64,000 nt of DNA from a virus, in UHGV virus genome UHGV-0179428, one strand, 5' to 3'. The translations under genes and the position numbers were made by a program. Below the pieces are notes generated by a model. That model was given only the letters and a program-made list of their open reading frames with translations. It was not told the origin of the DNA and ran no database searches. This document shows, piece by piece, positions 2,397 to 55,084 of the stretch. Numbering within the stretch: the stretch's first letter is position 1; every line of letters starts with the position of its first letter.

Positions 2397-2957
2397 CTAT
2401 TTAAAAGAGTTTGGAATTAATGACTCTGCTTCTCGATACAACCTATCGGGTAAGTATAACGTGTAGTGTTGCCTCCTCGGTTCAAGTTTTTTGTAAAGCC
2501 ACAAGAAGATTTCTTGTCTTTCCCAGGAATCTAACCACCCATTTGCCATTCCCAGTGGAGGGATAGCAACGCTGGTATCCAGCTCCTCAACACAATCTGC
2601 TAATGCGGTAATGCCCGCAGTAACATAAGAAACCTGGGACTTTAAACGCCAATGTGTTTTCGTTGGGAGCAAGATGCACTTTTCATCAGGGTAAACGTAA
2701 ACGCTTCCAATCTTAATTTCGTCTTCACGACACCGCTTACGGTAATCTTGATATAGGTTGGGGTAGCGTTCACGGCACGCCAGCGCAATACCGCGGCCCA
2801 TTGCTCCTACACAGTTAATGGTAACGACTTTATAGTCTTCGGGCGCATTAAAAAGATCGCTACCAATTTCAGATTCTTTACGTACCGTTAACATAACGAA
2901 TCGGCCGCAGTTGATGTGTAGTATTAAAACGTGTACCGCCGATTGATAACTCGACAA
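2397..2957 (-). CDS. putative macro-domain-like (ADP-ribose binding/processing) protein
   Basis: ORF track; VVTINCVGAMGRG and later AIPPLGMANG segments resemble the two glycine-rich loops of macro domains; start uncertain (TTG 2957 or ATG 2894). Confidence 0.35.
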   Translation of the reverse strand: MSSYQSAVHVLILHINCGRFVMLTVRKESEIGSDLFNAPEDYKVVTINCVGAMGRGIALACRERYPNLYQDYRKRCREDEIKIGSVYVYPDEKCILLPTKTHWRLKSQVSYVTAGITALADCVEELDTSVAIPPLGMANGWLDSWERQEIFLWLYKKLEPRRQHYTLYLPDRLYREAESLIPNSFK

Positions 2958-2981
2958 GTATAGCGATATACGTTTTACCCA

Positions 2982-3350
2982 TTAGCGATTTTTTGTAATC
3001 CATTGTTTGACCGCCGTTTCTAAACCTTCGTGTTGTAAGCCCAGGCGTTGCATAGCCAGTGCCAAGTTGAGCGTGTGTACAACCTGTTCACGGAACTGAT
3101 GATCGTTCATGCGGTCCCAGACCTTCTCTACCGAAATATTGTGTTTCCAGAGCAAATAAGCTTCGCGACACGATGCGCGACGAACCAAGCTGGGTTTAAC
3201 AAAAGGCAGCTCGATTTCAGGTAAGTAACCTAAAAGCTTAACTAGCTGTGTTACCTGTGTCTTACCAAAGTCGTCACACTGATAACAAATTTGTAGAATG
3301 TCAAATTCATTCAACGGTATGCCGTAAATTGATGGGTTCTCTGTGAACAT
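2982..3350 (-). CDS. hypothetical protein
   Basis: ORF track; GAGGAG RBS 7 nt upstream of ATG. Confidence 0.65.
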   Translation of the reverse strand: MFTENPSIYGIPLNEFDILQICYQCDDFGKTQVTQLVKLLGYLPEIELPFVKPSLVRRASCREAYLLWKHNISVEKVWDRMNDHQFREQVVHTLNLALAMQRLGLQHEGLETAVKQWITKNR

Positions 3351-3552
3351 TCATATTCTCCTCAGGCTCGAAATGTGTTTCGGGTGGCAACGTTCCTAAA
3401 GCCCCTTGGATACAAGCCGTCAGTGAAGGTTTGCCGAAACATACCTTACCTATTGTCCCCATATTGGGATGCTGTAAGAACGCTTTCGCACGTTCGTATT
3501 CTTTCCAACAAATACTCGTATCCAAACCACCCACTCCGTACGATTTTAACAT
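3307..3552 (-). CDS. hypothetical protein
   Basis: ORF track; AGGAGAGCTAATT-ATG RBS; 44-nt overlap with downstream gene. Confidence 0.6.
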   Translation of the reverse strand: MLKSYGVGGLDTSICWKEYERAKAFLQHPNMGTIGKVCFGKPSLTACIQGALGTLPPETHFEPEENMNVHREPINLRHTVE

Positions 3553-4574: not shown

Positions 4575-7062
4575 TTTTTACTCCTTCGTTATACACCGCA
4601 GGCAATGTCACCCCTTCCGGTTCGATGACACAGTACGATGCTTCATTAAGTTTAGAATGAACCTCGGCTTCGTGGGAGACTACCAACAGTTGAGAAAATT
4701 CTCCCGAGTTTGCTAACGTTTTAATAAAGCCGACCAGGTTGTTACGGTGCTCCTCATCCATACCTTCCGAAGGCTCATCCAAAAGCAATGGAAACTGATG
4801 CAACTTCAGCGCTTTGTACGCGGTCAGCCTGAACATCAGATTAAATATCGCACGCTGCGCCTTAGACCCTTTACGCACGTCAGGAACAGGCTCAGGATGC
4901 GTTTTTAGCTGGACAGGAAAAGTATAATCCAAATCACCGTCAGTGAGATCGCAAGGCATGACGCGCATGGGGTACGTCCAGACCTGTTCGATATAACGCG
5001 TCATTAACTCTGTGATTCTAACGATAGCGTTGTAAAAATACTTTCTAAGCACACCCTTTTCTGGCGAGAAGGCTTGAATCATCAGTTTGTTATTGAACTG
5101 CTGGGCTTGCAAGTCAGCAAGTTCGCGTTCCAAACTGTTGAGCTGATTCAATTCATTTTCCATCTGACGATAACGTTCGCGTGCGGTTGTAAAAGCATCC
5201 AGCTTCCCTTCTCGTGCACGTAAGAGTTCCTCGACGACTGTATTTGTCAACGTAACCTTAACATCACTCTCTAACCGTTCGAATAACGCACTGAAATCAT
5301 CTACAGCACGTTTAACATTCACCAGATAGGTAAGTGTCGTGTTAGCCAGTTCGTGCTCTCTACGACGCATTGAGAGCATCTCTGTGGCTTTACCTAATCG
5401 CGACTGTTGGAAAGCGATTTTCTGTTGTAAAGCACCATCGACGTTACCAACGGCCGCTACGGCATCCTGCCATTCTTTTTCCGCTTTCACTAACCGTTGT
5501 CGGGTTTCATGGTACTCAATAGCAGAGTACAACTCACTGTCAAACGCTGCGCATAGGCTCCCGAACTGCTCGCGTGATTCTGTGAAAACGTTACGTTCTT
5601 GCAAACGCTTAAAGAACATGCTCAATACCGGGTCCTTTGAATACGTCAGTACAATCTCACGAACCTGTCGCATATAAGTTACATCGGATTCTAACTCAAC
5701 ACGATCGCGTAATAGGGCCTCTAACTGCGTTTGTAGTTCCGTGCGCTGCTGTTGTTGTCCGCGAATCGAAGACTCAAGTTCAGGTAAAGAACGTGTAACA
5801 CCAGGCCGAAACTTAAACCGACACTGCGGACAATCCACTTCTGCTGTTTCTAAGTAGTGATTACGCTCATGATTTAAATTCTGTAAAACGTTCTCCACTC
5901 GCTGGAGTCTATCCCGCAACCCTGCGGTTTTTTGATCCATCACCAGAAGCCGTTCTTCCAAAACATTGAGTTTTTCGGTTGAATGAATTGCGTCCAGTGT
6001 TGTTCCTAACCGTTGCCCCCAGACACGCGCATCGGTAGCCGCACGAAGTTGGTCTAAATTGACGTTGTCGTTAAATAGACCCGGAAAGAGATGCTCGGTG
6101 TCCCATTTGGTAAGTAACTCACGTAAACGTGCCAGCGTATTCTTGAGACCTTCGTGATTCCGCATCAGGTAGTCTTGTCGTGTCGACTCATCCATTAATA
6201 ACGACAAGTCTTTATTCAACATCGATACCTCTGTTTCAGTAGAAACAACAGCTTCGCGGGCGGTCGCTTCGTTTTGTCGCGCGACCAGTATCTGTTCATC
6301 AGTAGGCAATCCACCACGATGTTGTAATATTGCGTCGATGGTTGGACCCAAGCTGTTTAATAACGCTTGGATTGTTTCGATGGTGACGGCACGATTTAAT
6401 CCTGGCAACTGTTCGATTTCTCGGTTCAGTTCACGTAAATCCGATTCCAAACCTTTTAATCTCGTCGCTAACTGCTGCCGTTCTTCCTCGTTCTCAATAA
6501 CGCGCGTCCGTAATTCGGCGATCTTACGGCTGGTGATTTCAATACCCCCATTTAAAGCAGTAAGGTTTTTACGCAAACGTTGATAAAACCCTAACGCGTA
6601 AGTGAGGTCAGAGGTACTTAAACGGTAAAACCACTTGCGGCGTAGTTCGGTTCCCGCGTCAGTTAACAACACCTCACCATTTAATAGTTCTTTAATCTCT
6701 TTCGTAATACCCGTGATTTCTTCAACACGGGAGTTGTAGACTTTCGCATTACCTTGCTCGACGATCTTTGTCCCCGTGGTCAAGTTCTCAATATCACAAA
6801 CCAGTGAGTTGCCTTTACGGGCAACTTTGAATCGATAGCGTTGATCGCCAACTAAACAGTAGTTTGTGTAAGAACCTCCGTCCCTGAATTCGGTTTTAGC
6901 CGGTGCTAAGGGTAAGAACACAGACAGTAGACTGGTTTTCCCGCAGCCGTTCCCACCCAGGATAATTGTTGTCGGTGACTGGATAGTGAAATCGAAGGTT
7001 TCAATTTCATGTAACCCCATCCCCGTAAAACCTTTGAGTATAATGCGTTCAACTTTTAGCAT
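4558..7062 (-). CDS. SMC/Rad50/SbcC-like ATPase with coiled coil
   Basis: ORF track 4558-7278; preferred ATG at 7062 after GGAGGTG; N-terminal Walker A GGNGCGKTS, long central coiled-coil region with CPQC, C-terminal Walker B LLLDEP and VVSHE. Confidence 0.7.
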   Translation of the reverse strand: MLKVERIILKGFTGMGLHEIETFDFTIQSPTTIILGGNGCGKTSLLSVFLPLAPAKTEFRDGGSYTNYCLVGDQRYRFKVARKGNSLVCDIENLTTGTKIVEQGNAKVYNSRVEEITGITKEIKELLNGEVLLTDAGTELRRKWFYRLSTSDLTYALGFYQRLRKNLTALNGGIEITSRKIAELRTRVIENEEERQQLATRLKGLESDLRELNREIEQLPGLNRAVTIETIQALLNSLGPTIDAILQHRGGLPTDEQILVARQNEATAREAVVSTETEVSMLNKDLSLLMDESTRQDYLMRNHEGLKNTLARLRELLTKWDTEHLFPGLFNDNVNLDQLRAATDARVWGQRLGTTLDAIHSTEKLNVLEERLLVMDQKTAGLRDRLQRVENVLQNLNHERNHYLETAEVDCPQCRFKFRPGVTRSLPELESSIRGQQQQRTELQTQLEALLRDRVELESDVTYMRQVREIVLTYSKDPVLSMFFKRLQERNVFTESREQFGSLCAAFDSELYSAIEYHETRQRLVKAEKEWQDAVAAVGNVDGALQQKIAFQQSRLGKATEMLSMRRREHELANTTLTYLVNVKRAVDDFSALFERLESDVKVTLTNTVVEELLRAREGKLDAFTTARERYRQMENELNQLNSLERELADLQAQQFNNKLMIQAFSPEKGVLRKYFYNAIVRITELMTRYIEQVWTYPMRVMPCDLTDGDLDYTFPVQLKTHPEPVPDVRKGSKAQRAIFNLMFRLTAYKALKLHQFPLLLDEPSEGMDEEHRNNLVGFIKTLANSGEFSQLLVVSHEAEVHSKLNEASYCVIEPEGVTLPAVYNEGVKIVYAN

Positions 7063-8350: not shown

Positions 8351-8740
8351 TCAATGATCTAATTCAATAGCACCAGCCATCTTGCCCCGTTCTTCGATAA
8401 CGATCAGATAACGGTCGCGAGATTTGCTTTTAGCGAGAGTTAAGACAACGGTAGGGTCGCACGTTTTCGTGGTGATAGGAAGAACCTCTCTTGCGACGGA
8501 ATCGAGCAGAAAGTAATAACCTGCGGGACACATTGTGCCACCGTCAGCTTTTACCAGAATATAGCGCCCGTCTGCGCCGACTTCTTGGCAGATTGTTTCA
8601 CCGACTTCGCAAACTTCAAACCCCGGAGGATTGTACTGATAATCGGTATTGTTGTTTGGGGTTAGCAGTAAATCGTTAACTTGGGTAGATGCTGCTACAC
8701 TCAGGGAGAAGAAGAATGCTAAAACGCAGACGAGACGCAT
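8351..8740 (-). CDS. secreted/periplasmic protein with signal peptide, hypothetical
   Basis: ORF track; N-terminal MRLVCVLAFFFSLSVAAST; AAGGAG RBS. Confidence 0.7.
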   Translation of the reverse strand: MRLVCVLAFFFSLSVAASTQVNDLLLTPNNNTDYQYNPPGFEVCEVGETICQEVGADGRYILVKADGGTMCPAGYYFLLDSVAREVLPITTKTCDPTVVLTLAKSKSRDRYLIVIEERGKMAGAIELDH

Positions 8741-8750
8741 GAGTTACTCC

Positions 8751-9161
8751 TTAAATTTTAAGTTTATCCATAGCTACAACGATAGGTTTTTCCGAAGTGT
8801 CTAATATCCCTACCATTGGCACACCATCTACGACTTCGAAGAATGGTTTGTTATTACCAGAGCACAGACGTTTGTCGTTGTATTCGAGACGCTGGGCCTT
8901 CCACGTTTCGAGGTTGAGTACGGACATTGGGCTGTCGTAGCACCAGGCACCACCCTGCTCAACGATGAATACGTATCTGCTACCTTTGTATTTAAACAGA
9001 CTCTTTGCCTGACAGTACAAGCCGTCGATTTCCGTACAATAGAAATCATCGGTGCTATTGACGTACTTAATATTGTCTGGCAACTGTATTGTTTTTGCTG
9101 TAGTGTTGACAGAGAATAGAACAGCCATTGCAATGAGGAGAGTATTAATGATAGTTTTCAT
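8751..9161 (-). CDS. secreted protein with signal peptide, hypothetical
   Basis: ORF track; N-terminal MKTIINTLLIAMAVLFSVNTTA; TAAGGA RBS. Confidence 0.7.
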   Translation of the reverse strand: MKTIINTLLIAMAVLFSVNTTAKTIQLPDNIKYVNSTDDFYCTEIDGLYCQAKSLFKYKGSRYVFIVEQGGAWCYDSPMSVLNLETWKAQRLEYNDKRLCSGNNKPFFEVVDGVPMVGILDTSEKPIVVAMDKLKI

Positions 9162-9172
9162 GATAAAAGTCC

Positions 9173-9658
9173 TTAGTATTTAGATTGTTCTACGTACTTC
9201 TTAACCAGGTAAGCGAATTCGGCAACACCGATATCACCGAACCAAATCAGATAACCGGGGTCGATGTTGTAGTAATAGCCGACGAGTTTCTTGGTGTGTG
9301 GGTTGTATAGCGTTACGATGTATTCCCAACCACAAGCGTTAGCTTTACAACCGCCACTTTCAATCCAGATTTTGTTGTTGATGTTTACCGGATACATGTT
9401 ACCGCCAGGGCCATCCATGTAACCTTTAGAGCCGAACATACCATCCAGCCCCACAGGGTCTAATGTTTTATCAACAACGGCTTTAAACGACTTATCGGTA
9501 TCGTACAAGTCGTTGATGTTTGGGCACGCATTTGGCTGACCTTCCCAAGCGTTTCCATCACAGGTAAGCAGTTCGTCTACGGAGGCCGCATCTACACTTG
9601 GTGTGGCACCGATAAACAAGAAAACCAGAAAGAACATCAGTGTGTGTAAACGTTTCAT
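9173..9658 (-). CDS. secreted protein with signal peptide, hypothetical
   Basis: ORF track; N-terminal MKRLHTLMFFLVFLFIGATPSVDA; AAAGGAG RBS. Confidence 0.7.
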   Translation of the reverse strand: MKRLHTLMFFLVFLFIGATPSVDAASVDELLTCDGNAWEGQPNACPNINDLYDTDKSFKAVVDKTLDPVGLDGMFGSKGYMDGPGGNMYPVNINNKIWIESGGCKANACGWEYIVTLYNPHTKKLVGYYYNIDPGYLIWFGDIGVAEFAYLVKKYVEQSKY

Positions 9659-9676
9659 TGTAACTACTCCTTTAGA

Positions 9677-10063
9677 TTATTCGGCAGGACGATTTAAGGT
9701 AACGCGTCCGATTAATTCGGCGTTGTGAAAGAAGTCCACAGCGGTATAGTTACCAACTGATAGCGGATGGATACTAACTGACATTACCTTTGGTTGTTCG
9801 CAAGCGATATCCGTCAGACGTTGGTAGACTTGTGCACGGGTGTCAGCAATGAGTAATCCCGTACACGTTTCACCACGCACTAAACGATAAACTTGCAGTT
9901 TACCGAAACTGCGCATTAACGTAGGCGTCTCGTCCGGGTTGATAATCGGTGAGTCAGGAGCCGGTTCGTAATAGCGGACATCCGAATCACCGAAAGCATA
10001 AGTGCCAGTAATTCCGACTGCACAGAAAATAATGATAGTATAAAGTATAGTTCTGATATTCAT
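9677..10063 (-). CDS. secreted protein with signal peptide, hypothetical
   Basis: ORF track 9677-10069 (GTG); ATG at 10063 gives MNIRTILYTIIIFCAVGITGTYA signal-like N-terminus. Confidence 0.6.
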   Translation of the reverse strand: MNIRTILYTIIIFCAVGITGTYAFGDSDVRYYEPAPDSPIINPDETPTLMRSFGKLQVYRLVRGETCTGLLIADTRAQVYQRLTDIACEQPKVMSVSIHPLSVGNYTAVDFFHNAELIGRVTLNRPAE

Positions 10064-10091
10064 TTTCACGCACTCTAAAAAAGATTAATAG

Positions 10092-10553
10092 TTATTTGTT
10101 AGGACGGGTGTGTCCACAGTTCTGGAAGAAAGTTTCAGACAGACGTTCGCCTTCTACGGTAAAGTTAGCGGCATCGTTACCATTGATACTCACACTGAAA
10201 GTTTTGGCATTACCGATAGCATTAACGAAAGCAACCCAAGCGTGTTCTGCTTTGTCACTACCGTCCACGGTAGGGATGTTATAGGTTTTGCCGTTTACGA
10301 CAATATCCATCGTGTTATCTTCAGCGTTAGTTGCACCTACGGGTTCACCGTAATACCAGACCATGCGACCGTAAAATTTGCGATTCGCAGTTTCAGTGTC
10401 ACAGTTGATAGACAGTCCGTTTCCGGCGGTGTCTTCAATTTCGTAAACTGCCTGGCCAGGGTTTTGTATTTGTTCCCAGCTGTTGATAGCGGCGTGTGCA
10501 GTATTGAGGCCGAAAGTTAAAATGGTTATTAAGAAAGTGATAAAGGTTTTCAT
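10092..10553 (-). CDS. secreted protein with signal peptide, hypothetical
   Basis: ORF track; N-terminal MKTFITFLITILTFGLNTAHA; AAGGAG RBS. Confidence 0.7.
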   Translation of the reverse strand: MKTFITFLITILTFGLNTAHAAINSWEQIQNPGQAVYEIEDTAGNGLSINCDTETANRKFYGRMVWYYGEPVGATNAEDNTMDIVVNGKTYNIPTVDGSDKAEHAWVAFVNAIGNAKTFSVSINGNDAANFTVEGERLSETFFQNCGHTRPNK

Positions 10554-10979: not shown

Positions 10980-11050
10980 CTCCTAAAATGGTTTTAGTTA
11001 AGTGAGTGCTTTTGTACTCTCACCTAAGTAATATATATCTGAAATTATTT
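10980..11050 (-). promoter_or_regulatory. conserved promoter-like motif plus 5' leader hairpin (copy 1)
   Basis: Motif TAAGTAATATATATCTGAAAT (plus strand) next to 11-bp-stem hairpin TTAAGTGAGNG-loop-CTCTCACnTAA and AGGAG RBS; about 80 nt nearly identical to 48075-48150. Confidence 0.5.
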
Positions 11051-11063
11051 TTAATATTAACGA

Positions 11064-11097
11064 ACAAAAAAATAAAAGGTGGGGGTTTACCCCCACC
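11064..11097 (-). terminator. rho-independent terminator
   Basis: GGTGGGGG-ttta-CCCCCACC hairpin then T tract on minus strand. Confidence 0.65.
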
Positions 11098-11101
11098 GAT
11101 G

Positions 11102-11680
11102 TTATACATCGAACCGGTACTGCCGGGAGTTAATGAGGAATTCGGTATTCAGCTCAATCCATTCGAGTAAATCACCCAACGGTAATCGGTTTGGGTTTTC
11201 TAACTCAATAGACGCTACCGGATAAGAGTTTACTAATTCCGTAATTGCCTCAATACCCTCTTGCGTTCCGTCGTCTTCTAAGGTGATTGTAAACGGCATA
11301 TCGGTACGTCCCGCATTAGGATTGTACAAACTGACTTTCGTTGCTTGCACAAACGCAGTCAGGTCGTCTCGCATAATGCGAATATCCGGCGCTAGAACCA
11401 CCCAGAGATGTTGCCCTGGCTGGAGTTTACGTTTTGCGTAATTTAAGAAAGGACTTGCCGTCAAGTTCTCTAAACTACAACAGATGTTACGTAAATGGAT
11501 TCCGCGTGGATCTTTGTAATCCACGTCGAAAATCCCCACAGGTTCATTCGCTGCCTGTTTTATCAGAAAGGCTAATACCGTGTCCGCTCTTTCTGGTAAG
11601 GAAAGCTCTATTCCCTCAAGCTCCCCATCGACGAGATTTTCTAACCAAACGTCTTTTCGCATTTCTATTAATCGGTACAC
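11102..11680 (-). CDS. hypothetical protein
   Basis: ORF track; GTG start after GAGGTGG. Confidence 0.65.
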   Translation of the reverse strand: MYRLIEMRKDVWLENLVDGELEGIELSLPERADTVLAFLIKQAANEPVGIFDVDYKDPRGIHLRNICCSLENLTASPFLNYAKRKLQPGQHLWVVLAPDIRIMRDDLTAFVQATKVSLYNPNAGRTDMPFTITLEDDGTQEGIEAITELVNSYPVASIELENPNRLPLGDLLEWIELNTEFLINSRQYRFDV

Positions 11681-11692
11681 GGTTCCACCTCA

Positions 11693-12466
11693 CTAATAAT
11701 TAAGTTTTACATCGGCAATAAACAGCAACTGTTTACCGTGTTGCTGCACTTCTTTCCAACCTAGCTTCATAGCAGCGTCAACAACATCTATCATGCTGTA
11801 ACGAGACATCAACGCGGTTGATTTTGTTCCTGACATTAAGTAAAGCGGCTCGTTGGGGCAACGGTCGCGTGCATCAGGAAGTTCCCGAGAGACTGCTGAG
11901 CCTTCGGGTACGGTAACAACATGAATCACGGTAAATGGTCTTTTGTGGGTTAAATAAATACGAAACCCAACGTGTTCAGACTCATGAAAGACTTTTTTCA
12001 CAACCACATCTTTTAGTGTCGTCTGAACATCAATCCCAGGTAATATCATGGATTCGCGAGAAACAAAACAACGACTATTTTCAACCGTGGAGAAATAATT
12101 ACGTATCGGCAAACTGGCGTTATGATCGTGCAGTTTTTTGCTCAGTAGATCGAAGTTCAGTTCTTTAACTTTCTCTAGCCATTCTTTGGCTTGTTGTATG
12201 TAATAACTACCAACGGTGCGATAAGTCAATACCTTACCTGTGCTTACTTTCCAAAGTTTAACGCTTAGTGAATTCGGCTTATAGCGACGATACTCACCCC
12301 GCGTATAGTTGATGCGCTCGTAACGCTCTACATCGTCAACGGGCGCAGATTCGATCGATTGTAATTGCAACGTACGATCTAATCTATCGGCGAATAGTAG
12401 TGATGTTAGCGGACCTTCGATCAAATACGGTTCGGTTTTAAAGATATCATCTAGATGGATTTTCAT
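11693..12466 (-). CDS. hypothetical protein, member of C-terminal GW..QLLF module family
   Basis: ORF track; AAGGAAATAGAA-ATG; C-terminus KLGWKEVQQHGKQLLFIADV shared with neighbours. Confidence 0.75.
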   Translation of the reverse strand: MKIHLDDIFKTEPYLIEGPLTSLLFADRLDRTLQLQSIESAPVDDVERYERINYTRGEYRRYKPNSLSVKLWKVSTGKVLTYRTVGSYYIQQAKEWLEKVKELNFDLLSKKLHDHNASLPIRNYFSTVENSRCFVSRESMILPGIDVQTTLKDVVVKKVFHESEHVGFRIYLTHKRPFTVIHVVTVPEGSAVSRELPDARDRCPNEPLYLMSGTKSTALMSRYSMIDVVDAAMKLGWKEVQQHGKQLLFIADVKLNY

Positions 12467-12533
12467 TTCTATTTCCTTCTTAACAAAAGCCGCGACTAAA
12501 GCGCGGCAGTTAGAGAAAGTGTATTTTCACTTA

Positions 12534-13685
12534 TTAGAGGTCAGCAACAAACAACAGCTGACTGCCGTATTTTTGCACGTCAGCCCAACCGTAGTCTTTC
12601 CCGATTATAGGTAGATGTAAAGCATCCAGCTTCTCGTCTTTCGCCTTCAGTTTCGCCATTAACGCATTGGACTCCTCAGCACTGAGCAGTAATGCGGGTT
12701 CTTTTTCAGTACGTCCTTCTGCGGTCGGGAAGAAATCGTAATAGCTGCGAGTAGGTAAATCGACAGAAAAACTACGATTGCCTATTGTGATGAAGAACGC
12801 AACTCCTTCACAGTTAGCGTCTACACTACACGACCACCCCGCCTCTGTTAAAAGGTCTTTTAACAGACACCACACTTTAAGTTGGTTCTTAGAAAGTGTA
12901 CGGTAAATAGCAAGATGGTCAGGAAGTAAATGCACACCCATAACCACGTTTTCAGATTTCTCGTCAAGCAACTCTGGATGTTGAATCGGGAATAATAATT
13001 CACTGATACCCACGCTATCAATTTTGTTAACAAAATCAGTTAATTCATCTTTTAAGGTACGCACGGATTTTTCTCCTTCGACTTCAATAATCTGGTGGGG
13101 TTCGCCGCTAATTAAAATGTGGTAAACGATATCGTCGGTAGAACGGTAAGTGAGTTTGATAGCTTTATCACTTAACATTTCGTAGCGGAAGAAACTTTCG
13201 TACCAAGTTGACCCGAAATCGTTTCGTGTAAGTTCCTGCTCAACTTTGATGGTTTTTGCTTCAAAGCCGATTAACCCGCTTAATAACGCGAGTTCTGGTT
13301 TAGTTAAAATGTCCGCGCCGTGAAAGGGCACTTTCTCAAGCTGAAGACATAAATTACTGACTTTACCACTTGGGAAGACCTTAAACATAATCTTCCGGCT
13401 GCTACTCTTTTCCCTAACAACGAGTTTACGGTAATTTAGTCCACAATTTGTGTAAACCGCGAACTTGTAACCTTCAATTTCTTCATCGTAAGTACAGACA
13501 TCGACAGGCGCGATAATCTCATTGTATTCAGTAAGTACACAGCAGCCCAAGTTATAACCAAACAACTCACGTTGTAATGAAGACTCGATGGTTAAGCTTG
13601 GTAGCGACCAAGTCCGATTATAGCATCTGTCCATCAGTTCTTTTAGGATTTTGACATGTCCCGGTTTAGAAATAATATTTCGCAT
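12534..13685 (-). CDS. hypothetical protein, member of C-terminal GW..QLLF module family
   Basis: ORF track; CCTAAAGGAGAGTAAAA-ATG; C-terminus DYGWADVQKYGSQLLFVADL. Confidence 0.75.
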   Translation of the reverse strand: MRNIISKPGHVKILKELMDRCYNRTWSLPSLTIESSLQRELFGYNLGCCVLTEYNEIIAPVDVCTYDEEIEGYKFAVYTNCGLNYRKLVVREKSSSRKIMFKVFPSGKVSNLCLQLEKVPFHGADILTKPELALLSGLIGFEAKTIKVEQELTRNDFGSTWYESFFRYEMLSDKAIKLTYRSTDDIVYHILISGEPHQIIEVEGEKSVRTLKDELTDFVNKIDSVGISELLFPIQHPELLDEKSENVVMGVHLLPDHLAIYRTLSKNQLKVWCLLKDLLTEAGWSCSVDANCEGVAFFITIGNRSFSVDLPTRSYYDFFPTAEGRTEKEPALLLSAEESNALMAKLKAKDEKLDALHLPIIGKDYGWADVQKYGSQLLFVADL

Positions 13686-13714
13686 TTTTACTCTCCTTTA
13701 GGTTTTTTCGTTAC

Positions 13715-14269
13715 TTAAGCAGGGTAAGCTAAGAACAACAGCTGCTGGCCGATTTTACGTACGGTATACCAACCGTGGGCTTTAGCGACCGCGATCAACG
13801 TTTCCCAGTCGTCAACATCGCACTGTTCATTCCGAAGTCTCGTAAAGAGTGCTTCGGCTTCGCTTTGGTTTAATAACTTACCTGGGTTGTCTGGGGTACA
13901 GTCAGTAGGGGTTGGAAAGAAAGCATACTGACGCGCTAAGAGAAAATCGACCAGATACTTGGTGTTCTCTTTATAAACCAGCGTGGAAGTCTTCCCTTCG
14001 TGGAAGAAGCTGCCTGTTTTCCAAACGCTATCTTTCAGTAGGCTTTGAAAGTAATCTGTAAAACCCGTTCTAAACGGGATATGGGCTTTACGTGTGATGT
14101 TGCGACGCAGTGGGGTTTCCTCCACAGCTTGTACACTTACCCCTACTATCATCGCACCTGGCTGAATAATGGTATTGGTCAGTACGGTATAAGGACGGAC
14201 AAAGAAATGTTCGCCTACGCCCTTTTCAAGGGTTTGGATAATTTCATTTTTCAGTTCAGTTTGAAACAT
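13715..14269 (-). CDS. hypothetical protein, member of C-terminal GW..QLLF module family
   Basis: ORF track; AAAAGGAGAATATACC-ATG; C-terminus AHGWYTVRKIGQQLLFLA. Confidence 0.75.
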   Translation of the reverse strand: MFQTELKNEIIQTLEKGVGEHFFVRPYTVLTNTIIQPGAMIVGVSVQAVEETPLRRNITRKAHIPFRTGFTDYFQSLLKDSVWKTGSFFHEGKTSTLVYKENTKYLVDFLLARQYAFFPTPTDCTPDNPGKLLNQSEAEALFTRLRNEQCDVDDWETLIAVAKAHGWYTVRKIGQQLLFLAYPA

Positions 14270-14298
14270 GGTATATTCTCCTTTTTCGGTTTTCTTAA

Positions 14299-15036
14299 TT
14301 ACGCGGTTTTAATTAACAGCAGATAGTCCTTCGTAATCTCAGCACAACCCCACCCTCTCATCGCGGCGATTTTACGAAGATCAATTTTCTCGTGATATTT
14401 CAATAAGGGATCATCTGAGTTAATCTCAACCAGGTGGGTGGCTTTAGAAATCGTTTCTACATCAGGGATCTGTTTTGCTAAGTCTGATGCAATTAACTCG
14501 ATGATACGGTATCCCTCTAACACAGAAACATAAATGCGTAAACCATATAGCGTGCCCTCGTCTTCTAATGGACAAAGATCGATGCCGGGTCCAAGCAGTG
14601 ATAACTCGACGTTATCGGGAAGGTTTTCCGCATTTCGGAGTAACCCTATCCCATTTCTAAACAGAGGGAAGTAAGAGAATAGTGGTGGTAAAGCCCAACC
14701 GTTCCCAATAAGCACATCGGCGATACTAGTAGGTGTGTTCGCAAGGAGACGAATGTGGTCAGCCACAACTTCAAGTTCGGCGTCACTGATCAACTTATAG
14801 ATTAACATGACACTGGTTTCGGTATTAATAACAAAGAAGACGCGGTTGGCGTAACTGCCTATCACGTATTCGTCAATCATACAGTCGATAACGTCACTGT
14901 CTGGATAATCTTCAGGTTTAATTGTTCCAGCATCGATTAACTTAGCAGGTTGCGATTGTTTTATTAGTTCGTTAACCACCGTAGAAGAAAGTTCTAAACT
15001 GGTGTTGGTAAAGATATCGTCTAGTAATTCTCTCAT
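14299..15036 (-). CDS. hypothetical protein (degenerate C-terminal GW module)
   Basis: ORF track; weak RBS; C-terminus MRGWGCAEITKDYLLLIKTA. Confidence 0.6.
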   Translation of the reverse strand: MRELLDDIFTNTSLELSSTVVNELIKQSQPAKLIDAGTIKPEDYPDSDVIDCMIDEYVIGSYANRVFFVINTETSVMLIYKLISDAELEVVADHIRLLANTPTSIADVLIGNGWALPPLFSYFPLFRNGIGLLRNAENLPDNVELSLLGPGIDLCPLEDEGTLYGLRIYVSVLEGYRIIELIASDLAKQIPDVETISKATHLVEINSDDPLLKYHEKIDLRKIAAMRGWGCAEITKDYLLLIKTA

Positions 15037-15278
15037 GATTTACTCGCTAATCCCAAAGAAGGGAAGGCTATTATTATGGATTGTAAAGGAGGTATAAGGA
15101 AGTCACTACGTTCCTCTGGGAAGAGTATGTCGGTATACTCCGTATACCTCCGCTATTTATATCCGTATACATAATGCCCCCTACCCCCTACCGGTATCCC
15201 GAGTAGCAGAATAAAGGGTCATAATGTAATTTTTTAGTAACCTTTAACGAAAGGTACTAAAAGGGTAACGTGTCCGTA

Positions 15279-15332
15279 GGGACTGAAGTACCAGTTCAGT
15301 CCCTATTCACTTAAGTAAAATATATCTGAAAT
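15279..15332 (-). promoter_or_regulatory. conserved promoter-like motif plus hairpin (copy 4) in divergent intergenic region
   Basis: GGGACTGAA-gtacca-TTCAGTCCC hairpin followed by CACTTAAGTAAAATATATCTGAAAT. Confidence 0.4.
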
Positions 15333-15357: not shown

Positions 15358-16323
15358 ATGGAGAAATCCAGTGTTGATTTTTTCTCAATTGGTATCGTCG
15401 CGGAAGACAAACCCCGTGGTACAGATCGGGTAAAAGTGATACCAATTGAAACCAACTTTGCTAACCCTACCGTGGTGCAATCTGTTTCTTCAGCAACTGA
15501 AAAGACGCATGAAACATCCGGTGCAACAGATAACCTAACCATTAAGACGGGAAACACGATAACAGCAAAGTGGTGGAAGTTTAACTCCAACCGAATTAAT
15601 TCCCCTGACGTTAAACGAGAAGACTACGTTATCTTGTTACGTTTGGGGAAAACCGATATTTATTTTTGGATTGATCTGAACTTCGCTAACGTTAAGCGAT
15701 TAGAAGATGCGGTTTATGCGTGGTCGGCTGACCCTGAAAACCAAATGGCGGATGACTTGTCCAATGCGTATGTGTTGAACGTTTCGACGATTGACAAACA
15801 TATCACGCTAAGAACGAGTATGGTGAATGGCGAGAAAGCGGCGTGGTTGTTTCAGTTTGATAATGCAAACGGTACGTGGCAGTGCGTTGACCATAAAGGA
15901 AACAAGTATTACATTAACTCGGTTGAAGATGATCTCGGGTTTGAGAATGCGATGCTTTCAAAAGTGAACATCAACAAAGAAGATGCGTTCATTTATTCAA
16001 AGCGTTCTATTAACCTGGAAACGAAAACGATTAATGAAAAATGCGAAGTCCGCAATACGGAAGCAGCGAGTTCCGTTACGTTTAAAACACAAACCTGGTT
16101 AACAGAAGCGGGCAGTTCGACAACGTTTAAAACGCCGAACTTTAAACAGGAAGGGAAGGAAGCGATGTTCACCGGTAATTTGGAAGTCGCTAAGAACTTC
16201 AAATACGGTGGTACGGGTGAGGGTGTGGGTGTCTTTACGGTTAAAGATGCCATTATTTCCGGTATTACCTTTAGCGTTCACATTCACCAAGGTAAACATG
16301 GCCCGACATCACCTCCGCAATAA
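15358..16323 (+). CDS. putative baseplate central spike / beta-helical fibre protein with C-terminal HxH apex
   Basis: ORF track; AAGGAACG RBS; C-terminal beta-strand-like repeats ending in SVHIHQGKHG, reminiscent of metal-binding spike tips. Confidence 0.35.
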   Translation: MEKSSVDFFSIGIVAEDKPRGTDRVKVIPIETNFANPTVVQSVSSATEKTHETSGATDNLTIKTGNTITAKWWKFNSNRINSPDVKREDYVILLRLGKTDIYFWIDLNFANVKRLEDAVYAWSADPENQMADDLSNAYVLNVSTIDKHITLRTSMVNGEKAAWLFQFDNANGTWQCVDHKGNKYYINSVEDDLGFENAMLSKVNINKEDAFIYSKRSINLETKTINEKCEVRNTEAASSVTFKTQTWLTEAGSSTTFKTPNFKQEGKEAMFTGNLEVAKNFKYGGTGEGVGVFTVKDAIISGITFSVHIHQGKHGPTSPPQ

Positions 16324-16529
16324 TTCCCCTTTTTCTTACGTTGTGTTTATATATTGTGACCTGACGTTGGTAAAGCTTTTTTATCAACACTTTTCTTAAA
16401 CCCATCGTTTAGTTAAGCAGGCCACTTTTTCGCGCACTCTACTCCTCCCTACGGGGAGGAGCTATCTTATGCTTCGGTTGTAACACACGTCGGTCTTAGA
16501 CCACCTTCCTTTTGAAATGGAGAGCTGTT

Positions 16530-16739
16530 ATGTCTATTAAAGAGTTCTCTTCTGCTGAGCATATTCCAGAAGAGTTTAAGAAAATCGGTAACGTTAGCGC
16601 CTTCGGCGACACCGTTGATCATGTAACGGGTAAGCTGGCTGCTGAAGCTGAAAAAATTGGCGGCGACGCATTCAAAGTTATCGGTATTTCCGGCAACAAC
16701 AAACTGCACGGTAACGCAATTGTCTACAAAAAAGACTAA
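16530..16739 (+). CDS. DUF1471 (YdgH/BhsA-like) domain protein lacking signal peptide
   Basis: ORF track 16512-16739; ATG at 16530 after GGAGAGCTGTT; KIGNVSAFGDTVDHVTGKLAAEAEKIGGDAFKVIGISGNNKLHGNAIVYK fits the DUF1471 pattern. Confidence 0.5.
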   Translation: MSIKEFSSAEHIPEEFKKIGNVSAFGDTVDHVTGKLAAEAEKIGGDAFKVIGISGNNKLHGNAIVYKKD

Positions 16740-16744
16740 GCGAA

Positions 16745-16800
16745 AAAAAAAACGTGCTACTCCTACCCTCTAAGAGGGTAGGAGGTTACTTTATTTTTTT
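16745..16800. terminator. bidirectional rho-independent terminator between convergent genes
   Basis: CCTACCCTC-taa-GAGGGTAGG hairpin flanked by a 10-A run upstream and a T-run downstream. Confidence 0.7.
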
Positions 16801-18053
16801 CGTGCTCTAAAGCGATGCATTTCTAAATACACTTTTTCCCAGGGACCGAATGGACCGACGATTGCTTGCGCGTCGTTAATCTTCTTCTGATTATACCACC
16901 GGGCTTCACGAAAGACGTAGTTTTGACTGTCGAATTCGGTGGTGTTAAATACCCACTCACCCTCCTCCCATGTAGGCCAATAGCCCACCGTCTTTCCGAA
17001 ACGATTATTTAAGTACCCTAATGGTTTTTCAGAATCAGGATCGCTAGGGTCCTTGAGATAACAACGTCCCCAAACTGCGTTATGCGATACACCCACAACC
17101 TCTTCTTCTAAATACGGATTATCTACCGTAAAGATAAACGAAGACTCGTGGAGTAAAAGCGCCTTTAATGTTTCGGGGTTGCGAATACGTTGGACATTAG
17201 TAGGTGTTGATAAATCCCCTACACCGATGGCGTCCCAGTCGTAATAGCGGCGGGTTTCCAGAACGGTCCGCGCAAGATCAAAATTCGGTAAAGAAATCAT
17301 GATCGCACGGTCGGAGAAATAACCGCCCGGAGGCAACCAACGTAACAGTCCACCGATGACGAAACCCACCGTTTTTCCCGTGATAGATTCTGGCAGCGAA
17401 ATCATTAGCGTGGAGTAATAGTCACGTGTAGTGTCGAGCTTGTTTAGGGTAAGGTTGGCAATGGGGTAAGTTTTAACATTCCCTAACTGACCAAAAACCA
17501 TACAGCCGATATCTGGCGTACAGGCTCTTCGTACGATTTTACCGGCTCCAGGTAATCGCACACCTACGGTATCTGTCTGATGCGGTACCCATTGACCGTT
17601 AATGTTGTACAGTACACTATTACGGTATTTGTCCTTCCACTTGTCCTCACAAACGATGACAACGTCATCAGCATCGTCTAAGCTGAAATCTTGACTGTGG
17701 TGGTACCCAGGCGGACACAGATATGTTTCAACGGGTACGTCGGCATTAATCGATTGGTAATGTGCCCAACTGAATTCGAGTTTCGGCAATCCGGCCCTTA
17801 GAGTGGGGATGACGTTTCCGGCTTTTTCATTTAACCAATCTTGTAAAGTGTCTGTTCGGTTTTGTAGTTCGGCAAGATGGTATTGGCTGACTAACGTATA
17901 GTCTTTACCAAGTGCACTTAAACCGATCTCAAAGGTGTGGTAGTCTGAACACAACGTATTTAAGGGTTGCGTGACATCGATGGCTCCCCAGGTACGGGAC
18001 TCTCGAGAGAAGCCAAAAGCGCTGTCGGGCCGCACTTGATAAGCAGTAGTCAC
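16791..18053 (-). CDS. hypothetical protein (possibly virion-associated)
   Basis: ORF track; divergent from the fibre gene block; bidirectional terminator at 3' end. Confidence 0.7.
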   Translation of the reverse strand: MTTAYQVRPDSAFGFSRESRTWGAIDVTQPLNTLCSDYHTFEIGLSALGKDYTLVSQYHLAELQNRTDTLQDWLNEKAGNVIPTLRAGLPKLEFSWAHYQSINADVPVETYLCPPGYHHSQDFSLDDADDVVIVCEDKWKDKYRNSVLYNINGQWVPHQTDTVGVRLPGAGKIVRRACTPDIGCMVFGQLGNVKTYPIANLTLNKLDTTRDYYSTLMISLPESITGKTVGFVIGGLLRWLPPGGYFSDRAIMISLPNFDLARTVLETRRYYDWDAIGVGDLSTPTNVQRIRNPETLKALLLHESSFIFTVDNPYLEEEVVGVSHNAVWGRCYLKDPSDPDSEKPLGYLNNRFGKTVGYWPTWEEGEWVFNTTEFDSQNYVFREARWYNQKKINDAQAIVGPFGPWEKVYLEMHRFRARKK

Positions 18054-48074: not shown

Positions 48075-48150
48075 ATTCTCCTAAAATGGTTTTCGTTAAG
48101 TGAGAGCTTTTGTACTCTCACTTAAGTAATATATATCTGAAATTATTTTT
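48075..48150 (-). promoter_or_regulatory. conserved promoter-like motif plus 5' leader hairpin (copy 2)
   Basis: Near-identical copy of the 10980-11050 block upstream of an unrelated gene. Confidence 0.5.
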
Positions 48151-52461: not shown

Positions 52462-52512
52462 TAATGGAGTGAACGTAAATTTCACTCTCCCCTAGGTAAT
52501 ATATATCTGAGA
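52462..52512 (-). promoter_or_regulatory. conserved promoter-like motif plus hairpin (copy 3)
   Basis: CCTAGGTAATATATATCTGAG with adjacent GAGTGAA...TTCACTC hairpin upstream of 51587-52438. Confidence 0.4.
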
Positions 52513-54301: not shown

Positions 54302-55084
54302 TTAAACACGTGAACCGTATATTGCACCTACTGCGTCCCATCTTGGCGCATTACCAGTAACAGCTTTACCAGCTGCTCCGCCGTTATATTCTGTACCGTT
54401 ACCTTGAGTATTACATCTTCCTCCAGCAGCACCGACATTACCACCCGAACCGCCTGTATATGCACTAAGAGACCCCTCACCAACAGATCCTCTACCAGGA
54501 GCGGAAATAGTACCAGCAGCTGCACCGGAACTCATATGAGAGGAAGACCCACCAGCACCGAATGGGCGACCACCGCCACCACCAAATATTAGTCTACCCC
54601 TGTTACCGCCACCACCGCCGCCACCGCCTCCGGCAATAGCGCCACGGTTGGTTATACGCAGTCTGTTTCCTATTCCGTTCTGTATTGCGGTTCCACCTGC
54701 ACCGCCTGGTGAGTTAGAACCGCCGTTGCCTCCTCTGCCGTATACTGTAACCCCAGGATTGATGATGAGGGTAATATACGAATTTGGAAGATTGCTAGGG
54801 AATTCTAAACAAGGAACCGTGCTACTATGGGACACTAAATCCCCCGTAATAGTCACAACGACAGCAGTAGAGCCTAAAGAACGTAAATAGTTAATAAGCG
54901 TATCTTTATTGTAATTGTGATTAGCCCCGATCGAATACTGAACCTCTTTTGATTTTCCCGCCAATTGCGACATCCAGCCTGGAACCGGCACACCAAGTGT
55001 GCGCATCGCGCCAGACATCCATTCGTTACCAGCTTCAGCTTTTGCTGAAGAACCAATCCAACCACCTACGCCGACAACTGCCAT
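54302..55084 (-). CDS. Gly-rich protein with poly-Gly tract
   Basis: ORF track; start ATG overlaps fibre stop (TAATG); GGGGGGGGG and GGxGG runs. Confidence 0.7.
   Translation of the reverse strand: MAVVGVGGWIGSSAKAEAGNEWMSGAMRTLGVPVPGWMSQLAGKSKEVQYSIGANHNYNKDTLINYLRSLGSTAVVVTITGDLVSHSSTVPCLEFPSNLPNSYITLIINPGVTVYGRGGNGGSNSPGGAGGTAIQNGIGNRLRITNRGAIAGGGGGGGGGNRGRLIFGGGGGRPFGAGGSSSHMSSGAAAGTISAPGRGSVGEGSLSAYTGGSGGNVGAAGGRCNTQGNGTEYNGGAAGKAVTGNAPRWDAVGAIYGSRV
54571..54640 (-). repeat. GGN-codon simple repeat encoding poly-glycine
   Basis: ccgccaccaccgccgccaccgcc-type run on plus strand inside the Gly-rich gene. Confidence 0.7.

Follow-up and report, generated by a model that had tools for sequence, protein, structure and literature searches.

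Four successive minus-strand genes, located between positions 11693 and 15036 of a 64,000-nucleotide stretch of the viral genome UHGV-0179428 (this whole stretch being referred to hereafter as the window) and designated here g4, g3, g2 and g1 in their order along the strand, encode proteins of different length, three of which (g1 to g3) terminate in a closely related module, with a possible degenerate counterpart in g4. The module is a rare, phage-restricted domain family without a curated model, which is found in other phages at the end of many different N-terminal parts (bodies). The reading that we prefer, with a confidence that falls somewhat short of even, is that the module, as the constant working part of these proteins, binds a single conserved ligand and that the bodies diversify through selection exerted by the host. 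The genes, their modules and the gene that follows them (g0) are the following.

14299-15036, minus strand: g4, 245 residues, opening the array; its body is acidic (isoelectric point 4.2).
14302-14496, minus strand: degenerate, candidate module of g4 (about residues 181-245).
13715-14269, minus strand: g3, an open reading frame (ORF) of 184 residues with the module at its end.
13718-13927, minus strand: module of g3 (about residues 115-184), from BLASTP, hidden Markov model (HMM) and shuffle test.
12534-13685, minus strand: g2, 383 residues, with the longest body of the array and the module at its end.
12537-12743, minus strand: module of g2 (about residues 315-383), from BLASTP, HMM and shuffle test.
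11693-12466, minus strand: g1, 257 residues; in its AlphaFold2 model, a linker joins alpha/beta body domains 1-101 and 105-185 to the module.
11696-11890, minus strand: module of g1 (residues about 193-257; hhalign probability P 99.7% against the family profile).
11102-11680, minus strand: g0, 192 residues, phrog_20879; downstream neighbour of the module genes, kept in all relatives.

The relatedness of the g1, g2 and g3 C-termini was proposed in a first-pass annotation made from the DNA letters, whose coordinates and quoted C-terminal peptides for the three genes, together with its ORF coordinates for g4, match the translated ORFs; five of these follow one another on the minus strand in 11102-15036, in the order g4-g3-g2-g1-g0. 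BLASTP bore the proposal out, aligning g1 with g2 over 65 residues (38% identity, E 1e-10), g2 with g3 over 108 residues (30% identity, E 7e-12) and g1 with g3 over 64 residues (E 1e-6), although the shared segment proved to be about 65-70 residues long instead of the 25-40 initially given. It starts with a conserved P-D-x-x-D-R-[ST]-x-N-[DE]-P-x-Y-L-M-S stretch and in the three proteins follows the pattern [IL]PDxxDR[ST]xN[DE]PxYLMS...AKxxGWxxVxxxGkQLLFiA. The alignment check that the annotation had suggested against a low-complexity coincidence was run on the last 70 residues, whose local alignments were compared with 2000 shuffles: z reached 20 for g1/g2, 22 for g2/g3 and 12 for g1/g3, with none of the 2000 shuffles equalling the observed score. 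Moreover, the tails have an entropy of 3.9-4.1 bits and use 19-20 residue types, meaning that they are not of low complexity. A low-complexity or chance origin of the similarity is ruled out by these values. Against the module profile all three proteins scored as members (hmmsearch E 1e-28 to 1e-42; hhalign P 97-99.7%), and an HMM search revealed no more copies in the rest of the window. Two other candidates were discarded. The gene g0, considered as a fifth family member, was ruled out by BLASTP, HMM and hhalign, and the NEP/AEP motif, considered as a prohead-protease cleavage site, was dropped because the residue at P3 departs from the S/A/G-x-E rule of these proteases.

An exhaustive search of 1.84e9 representative proteins, performed with a module profile built without g4 (E at most 1e-3), returned only 58 representatives. 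In nearly all of them the module occupies the extreme C-terminus of a protein of 129-534 residues or makes up nearly the whole of a protein of 72-130 residues, a few matches extending shortly beyond the module at the C-terminus. The family consensus reads [IL]PDxxDR[ST]xN[DE]PxYL[ML]S, followed by a helix, an insert of 0-50 residues and AKxxGWxxVxxxGkQLLFiA. The 29 bodies with at least 80 residues fall into 17 groups that BLASTP cannot link, that is, at least 17 body types. When 30 family members were compared with Pfam no body domain was recognised, the lone hit being a stray DUF6301 match (E 0.006); g1-g4 searched against the Pfam-A, NCBIfam and PADLOC defence/anti-defence models gave a best E of 0.07, and the homologues from phages SPN3US, CR5 and SNUABM_29 matched nothing in Pfam-A, NCBIfam and PADLOC. 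The first-pass view of a shared module on varied bodies, of the host-takeover or anti-defence type, therefore gains from an independently folding module and from the number of body types, but none of the known families of either type was matched. In the Erwinia phage PhiEaH1 (Chimalliviridae; L018, 2968-3708) the placement is the reverse of the usual C-terminal one, the module being N-terminal, at residues about 14-100 of a 246-residue protein.

No g4-type protein is included among the 58 matches, and the family HMM built without g4 scores this protein at E 1.7 only. Its C-terminus keeps IPD...GW...LLLIK, with the DR..N.P.YLMS part gone; in the shuffle test the tail gave z = 3.2 against g1, with 29 of the 2000 shuffles scoring at least equally, and no signal against g2 or g3. 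The degenerate module that had been assigned to g4 is nevertheless compatible with two profile comparisons made with hhalign, one placing the last 26 columns in register with the broad module profile (P 57%, E 1e-4) and the other aligning g1 and g4 over their full length (242 columns, P 72%, E 3e-5), even if the tail itself is marginal.

The module also exists as a gene of its own. Stand-alone copies were found in the jumbo phages FBKp24 and Centimanus of Klebsiella and SXP01 of Shewanella, in Serratia/Klebsiella Kp* phages of ~300 kb and in IMG/VR contigs of 231-312 kb. In addition, a stand-alone gene of 75 residues lies between ThyX-like and NAD-dependent DNA-ligase-like ORFs in two smaller, AT-rich viral IMG/VR contigs of 22 and 69 kb (L020, 4992-5219; L021, 5001-5228), and the domain is thus not confined to jumbo phages of Enterobacterales. 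Because the module occurs alone, at 72-130 residues, it probably has a binding activity of its own and is not a pure address tag, since a tag without cargo makes little sense. Stand-alone genes lie in tRNA clusters or 70-350 nt from them, on the same strand, at these positions.

2950-3309 of the Klebsiella phage FBKp24 locus (L017): stand-alone module gene, the sole ORF among 8 tRNAs.
2986-3375 of the Shewanella phage SXP01 locus (L019): stand-alone module gene at a tRNA cluster.
About 5940-6330 of three IMG/VR jumbo contigs (L010-L012): stand-alone module gene at a tRNA cluster.

No such adjacency was seen at the L020-L022 loci, nor in the window, which contains no tRNA. The siting in tRNA clusters may be synteny that a single lineage has inherited, or it may point to a functional connection with tRNA biology.

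The AlphaFold2 model of g1 (82-sequence alignment) reached a predicted local distance difference test score (pLDDT) of 84.7 and a predicted template modelling score of 0.64 and places a linker between two alpha/beta body domains and the module; the module modelled alone (29 sequences) reached a pLDDT of 85.4. The models are those expected of an autonomous, independently folding small alpha/beta domain. The predicted fold is a short helix, a strand, two helices and a beta-hairpin (beta-alpha-alpha-beta-beta core), which corresponds in g1 to strand 208-211, helices 213-222 and 225-234 and beta-hairpin 237-251, and in the module-alone model to H9-13, E26-28, H31-40, H43-52, E55-61 and E64-69, helix 1 being very short. 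In the predicted structure this order of elements equals the canonical winged-helix topology, alpha1-beta1-alpha2-alpha3-beta2-beta3. It could be supposed, therefore, that the module is a nucleic-acid binder of the winged-helix type and that the proteins are DNA or RNA regulators or protectors with bodies acting as sensors or effectors, for example by regulation via the GTATAC[CG]GA repeats of the array's own leader, or as RNA/tRNA-associated factors. One stand-alone member shows sub-threshold similarity to Pfam TBPIP/Hop2 (E 0.009) and Mnd1 (E 0.12), there is a weak match to PDB 2kzv (E 0.37), three direct repeats lie in the invariant leader upstream of the array, and the stand-alone genes of FBKp24, SXP01 and three IMG/VR jumbo contigs are in or near tRNA clusters, all of which would agree with such a role. 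However, the comparison with known winged helices revealed neither significant structural or sequence similarity nor a basic recognition surface. Charge also speaks against it, the modules being neutral to acidic (net charge -3.5 to +0.5), as does the loop that joins the helices, the would-be turn of a helix-turn-helix: it accepts inserts of 0 to ~50 residues, which is atypical for a DNA-reading motif of this kind. With these charges and inserts, "winged-helix-like" is a label for the topology and not for the function. The tRNA adjacency, in turn, is limited to one subgroup, maybe to one lineage, and is absent from three other loci and from the window. A nucleic-acid-binding module of this type is thus regarded as unlikely. 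The lower matches of the structural search were R3H at 4.5 and RepE at 4.2; full-length g1 gave the same structural matches as the module, which leaves the g1 body without a PDB match. Foldseek against BFVD returned only uncharacterised Erwinia jumbo-phage proteins, and sequence searches of PDB chains with three profiles gave nothing below E 0.1.

The distribution of the module among close relatives shows how freely the bodies change. The window is part of a ~225 kb Seoul-like, SPN3US-related jumbo phage of the nucleus-forming Chimalliviridae: the DNA of its conserved genes is ~72-73% identical to that of SPN3US-type Salmonella phages and of an Erwinia phage of Seoulvirus, a genus of this family. 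Contigs of 223-227 kb that carry orthologues of g1 occur in assemblies of Salmonella, Shigella and E. coli isolates, as well as in metagenomes. These contigs match the "Seoul-like persistent virulent phages", a clade that is widespread in clinical Enterobacteriaceae isolates as "persistent" virulent phage (bioRxiv 10.1101/2024.12.31.630880). Seven more genomes from the clade to which the window belongs retain the four-gene array. In five more distant phages a single module gene occupies the syntenic locus, past the divergent baseplate gene and ahead of the g0 homologue (phrog_20879).

SPN3US gp175 (SPN3US_0175; YP_009153469): 412 residues, syntenic module gene.
Phobos gp176: 319 residues, syntenic module gene.
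CR5_165: 364 residues, syntenic module gene.
phiEaH2 gp097: 223 residues, syntenic module gene.
pEa_SNUABM_29_258: 423 residues, syntenic module gene.

These relatives were recovered by a g1 search at relaxed E-value; with g2, tblastn on 50,697 phage records (E 1e-3) gave no match, and word-indexed protein searches brought up close orthologues or fragments for the most part. Their modules are 33-42% identical to those of the array, and their bodies could be aligned neither with each other nor with g1-g4; CR5 and Phobos, which belong to the same genus, have the last 74 residues alone in common (69% identity). All five genes carry the annotation "hypothetical", and the literature search brought up no paper on them: its matches for SPN3US "gp175" all concern the phiKZ gp175 protease, another gene.

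Across eight genomes of the clade, g1-g4 evolve several-fold faster than their neighbours. Protein identity is 75-96% for g1, 42-97% for g2, 46-97% for g3 and 47-98% for g4, with ratios of nonsynonymous to synonymous substitution rates (dN/dS) of 0.15, 0.36, 0.19 and 0.26, respectively, and in the flanks it amounts to 90-99% for the tail gene and 93-99% for the baseplate gene, with dN/dS of 0.04-0.05. As all these ratios are well below 1, the four genes are functional. In each of them the dN/dS of the body exceeds that of the module, which is under the stronger purifying selection. The proteins of g4 alone make up at least 85 clusters when grouped at 90% identity, and they split deeply into two allele groups, one of 245 and one of 250 residues, that are 41-47% identical. 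Moreover, identities vary independently from gene to gene: g4, g3, g2 and g1 are 74, 92, 88 and 96% identical in one relative (L016) and 96, 97, 74 and 84% in another (L015), the alleles being reshuffled by recombination between near-identical genomes. Such a mosaic, fast-evolving pattern fits host-interaction genes. Conserved islands at the nucleotide level were found in the leader (15124-15243), in the g2-g1 intergenic region (12484-12543, 97% conserved across the clade and above both flanking genes) and at the gene 3' ends; plausibly, they are cassette boundaries.

Inside the array itself the bodies are less varied than between phages. In profile-profile comparisons (hhalign) of orthologue alignments, g3(6-181) was homologous to g2(211-381) over 171 columns (P 97.7%, E 2e-12), the whole length of g3 corresponding to the C-terminal half of g2, and the same method identifies g1 and g4 as full-length paralogues; the part common to g1 and g2 is limited to the last 58 columns (P 96.8%). 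Given that g1/g4 and g2/g3 are paralogous, tandem duplication accounts for at least part of the array's origin, and plain duplication followed by divergence for part of the window's pattern. The first-pass claim that the upstream parts differ holds accordingly between the g1/g4 and g2/g3 pairs, where the pattern of same tail and different body is clean, but not within each pair; the pattern is far more striking between phages.

These relationships raise the alternative of ordinary diverging paralogues, in which the module would be the slowest-evolving core for folding or oligomerisation, possibly mediating homo- or hetero-oligomers among the four products, and would have no common external partner. 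Such an explanation is in line with the full-length alignment of g1 and g4, with the match of g3 to the C-terminal half of g2, with dN/dS below 1 everywhere and with the beta-hairpin edge of the module, beta-hairpin edges commonly serving as dimerisation surfaces. Large families of paralogues do exist in SPN3US, as exemplified by a 17-member head family (PMC5105663). It accounts poorly, however, for the at least 17 groups of bodies that BLAST cannot link and that contain no known domain, and for the restriction of similarity to the last 74 residues (69% identity) between phages of the same genus such as CR5 and Phobos. Furthermore, the occurrence of the module alone, and at the N-terminus in PhiEaH1, speaks of domain mobility and not just of differential decay. 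Paralogy without a shared partner is given a low probability for these reasons.

The expression signals around the array bear on the nature of its products and include the following elements.

15307-15330, minus strand: 24-nt motif TTCAGATATATTTTACTTAAGTGA ahead of g4, a candidate promoter of the array for early transcription by the virion RNA polymerase.
11020-11043, 48118-48141 and 52488-52511, minus strand: the other copies of the 24-nt motif, each preceding, like the first, a minus-strand gene block.
15094-15221, minus strand: invariant leader block, non-coding, ~130 nt, the same in 8 genomes.
12489-12507, minus strand: GC-rich terminator-like hairpin in the g2-g1 gap, in the conserved island 12484-12543.
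11078-11097, minus strand: terminator-like hairpin with a T-run, which ends the g1-g0 unit.

The motif, with the consensus TTCAGATATAT[AT]TTACTTA[AG]GTGA, has 4 copies in the window versus 0 expected, all on the minus strand; the one at 11020-11043 lies directly past the g0 terminator, and the gene blocks behind the copies at 48118-48141 and 52488-52511 have no PHROG match. Its position before the array is the same in 7/7 clade relatives, it stands 80-100 nt ahead of the module gene in CR5 and Phobos, and it is the sole part of the region found by megablast in phiEaH2, Stratton and Asesino. According to a review of the RNA polymerases of jumbo phages, AT-rich motifs upstream of operons were early virion-RNA-polymerase promoters wherever tested, and middle and late promoters are not discoverable bioinformatically as AT-rich motifs (PMC7598289). 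Early operons of this class are marked by a conserved AT-rich motif of ~10 nt that recurs ahead of them, an arrangement that the array shows, and the 24-nt motif probably represents the early promoter consensus of SPN3US-like phages. A search for transcriptome data on this phage or on SPN3US gp175 found none. As for the virion, the mass-spectrometry table published for SPN3US lists gp167-171, gp173 and gp193 and does not list gp175 (Thomas et al. 2016, PMC5105663), an absence that concerns the SPN3US homologue and not the phage of the window. These data suggest that g1-g4 are expressed early and are not structural, their timing being deduced from the motif.

The genomic neighbourhood could suggest otherwise. 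The array adjoins baseplate and tail genes, namely that of a phrog_3216 baseplate protein (15358-16323) and that of a homologue (16791-18053) of SPN3US gp171, which is tail-associated (PMC5105663), and it has hypervariability, allele shuffling and copy-number expansion that recall receptor-binding loci. The proteins might thus be virion-attached host-range factors of the baseplate or tail, with the module docking on the particle and the body contacting the host surface. Yet g1-g4 are transcribed divergently from the baseplate gene, behind the early-promoter-like motif, and gp175 is missing from the virion table in which gp167-171 and gp173 appear. The polarity of the proteins is also opposite to the conserved N-terminal anchor that is usual in fibres, they are small globular alpha/beta proteins devoid of fibre-like repeats, and the stand-alone copies of 72-130 residues are found among tRNA or nucleotide-metabolism genes. 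A role on the virion appears highly improbable.

The leader block that follows the motif holds three GTATAC[CG]GA direct repeats (15130-15170) and GGTAGGGGGTAGGGGG, and it is invariant although the g4 alleles downstream are only 47-98% identical in protein. It showed no Rfam match, no fold signal (z = -1.05) and no match in other phage records, and it could be an operator or regulatory site, a leader RNA or a recombination anchor. In five other genomes (L016, at 3014-3434, L006, L007, L008 and L014) the leader carries an insertion of ~95 nt that contains a ribosome-binding site and in which a small ORF begins (ATGTCTACT...); the insertion lies between the motif and the invariant block, the corresponding stretch of the window being 15244-15303, and it is absent in the window, L013 and L015.

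In the reading that we prefer, g1-g4 would constitute a tandem array of paralogous, early, non-structural accessory genes, each product combining a variable N-terminal body with the ~65-residue module. Early transcription would be driven by the conserved AT-rich motif, and the array has expanded by duplication (g1/g4, g2/g3) at a locus with a single gene in sister genera. The ligand of the module would be one conserved protein or nucleic acid, of phage or host origin, and the bodies would be exchangeable add-ons under host-imposed selection, operating in counter-defence, host takeover or exclusion. Several observations weigh against this proposal. Every functional step in it is inferred. The stand-alone copies sit elsewhere, in tRNA clusters or between ThyX-like and ligase-like genes, and the role may not be host takeover. 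Gene-wide dN/dS is below 1, and the faster evolution could reflect relaxed constraint and not an arms race. The promoter was classed by its sequence motif and by what one review states, not by transcripts of this phage, and absence from one virion table is compatible with low-copy virion association. Finally, the membership of g4 in the module family is weak, and, with two body pairs paralogous in the window, "shared tail on different bodies" overstates the local picture.

A more far-reaching possibility, which we consider quite improbable, is that the module represents a novel ligand-binding domain, specific to phages, which marks a diversity-generating locus for counter-defence or persistence in nucleus-forming jumbo phages. 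The module would then dock on the machinery of early infection or of the nuclear shell, or on a host RNA- or tRNA-linked factor, the latter candidate being hinted at by the stand-alone copies in tRNA clusters, and the swappable bodies would counter variable host immunity as decoys or inhibitors. The invariant leader and the conserved islands between genes would direct the exchange of cassettes, and the expansion to four genes would aid the long-term coexistence of the "persistent" Seoul-like phages with diverse hosts.

The window has other features that deserve mention. Five small proteins (129-161 residues) are encoded in a row on the minus strand at 8351-10553, most of them with signal-peptide-like N-termini, and the protein that relatives encode where the first of them lies matches Pfam PF27224 (YfjT). 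Together with a DUF1471/YdgH-BhsA-like gene of 69-75 residues at 16512-16739, this run is a secreted, host-like small-protein cluster downstream of the array. A giant tail-fibre protein of 1500 residues is encoded at 55084-59586 on the minus strand; its pieces match 53 PHROG tail-fibre families, which indicates a highly mosaic fibre, and it is followed by a host-specificity protein of 260 residues (54302-55084).

Most genes of jumbo phages are orphans, and a compact domain that folds with confidence offers an experimental handle on them: a single bait of 65 residues could expose the conserved partner of a whole set of hypervariable proteins. As the locus varies between otherwise identical genomes, it is also a good candidate for a determinant of host compatibility. 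The domain deserves a curated family model, being now scattered by PHROGs over at least four families of unknown function. The observation itself is solid, and there is no sign yet of an unprecedented mechanism.

The nearest known entities are these same automatic families. At their C-termini, g1 and g2 match the last 60-90 positions of the phrog_26772, phrog_33648, phrog_24489 and phrog_18480 profiles (E 2.5e-9 to 1.7e-3), and the stand-alone modules match the same profile ends. The four families gather homologues of the SPN3US, phiEaH2 and CR5 types and are all of "unknown function", with no annotation or experiment attached; they split the proteins by body, so that the module is not recognised as a domain, and g3 and g4 match none of them. 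SPN3US gp175 and its positional homologues resemble the array in locus and in terminal module, and those of CR5 and Phobos also in the upstream motif; they differ from it in being one gene per genome versus four, with bodies that cannot be aligned. With winged helices such as Hop2/Mnd1 and RepE, the module has in common its predicted element order and its size, as well as weak echoes in sequence and structure, none of them significant. Unlike them, it is not basic, the inserts in its helix-helix loop are variable and long, and its N-terminal PDxxDR[ST]xN[DE]P arm has no counterpart there. Phages are known to carry modular accessory families, including Bro-N/KilA-N fusions, the internal proteins of T4 with their common capsid-targeting sequence and polymorphic-toxin-like architectures. 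The array is like these in joining one element to many partners, in its quick turnover and in its variable copy number. It is unlike them in that the module is a folded unit of 65 residues, usually C-terminal and existing also alone, which is neither an N-terminal leader nor a trafficking domain and has no sequence relation to any of these families. What is new, therefore, is an uncurated domain family, whereas the evolutionary pattern is the known one of modular accessory families and not a new kind of system.

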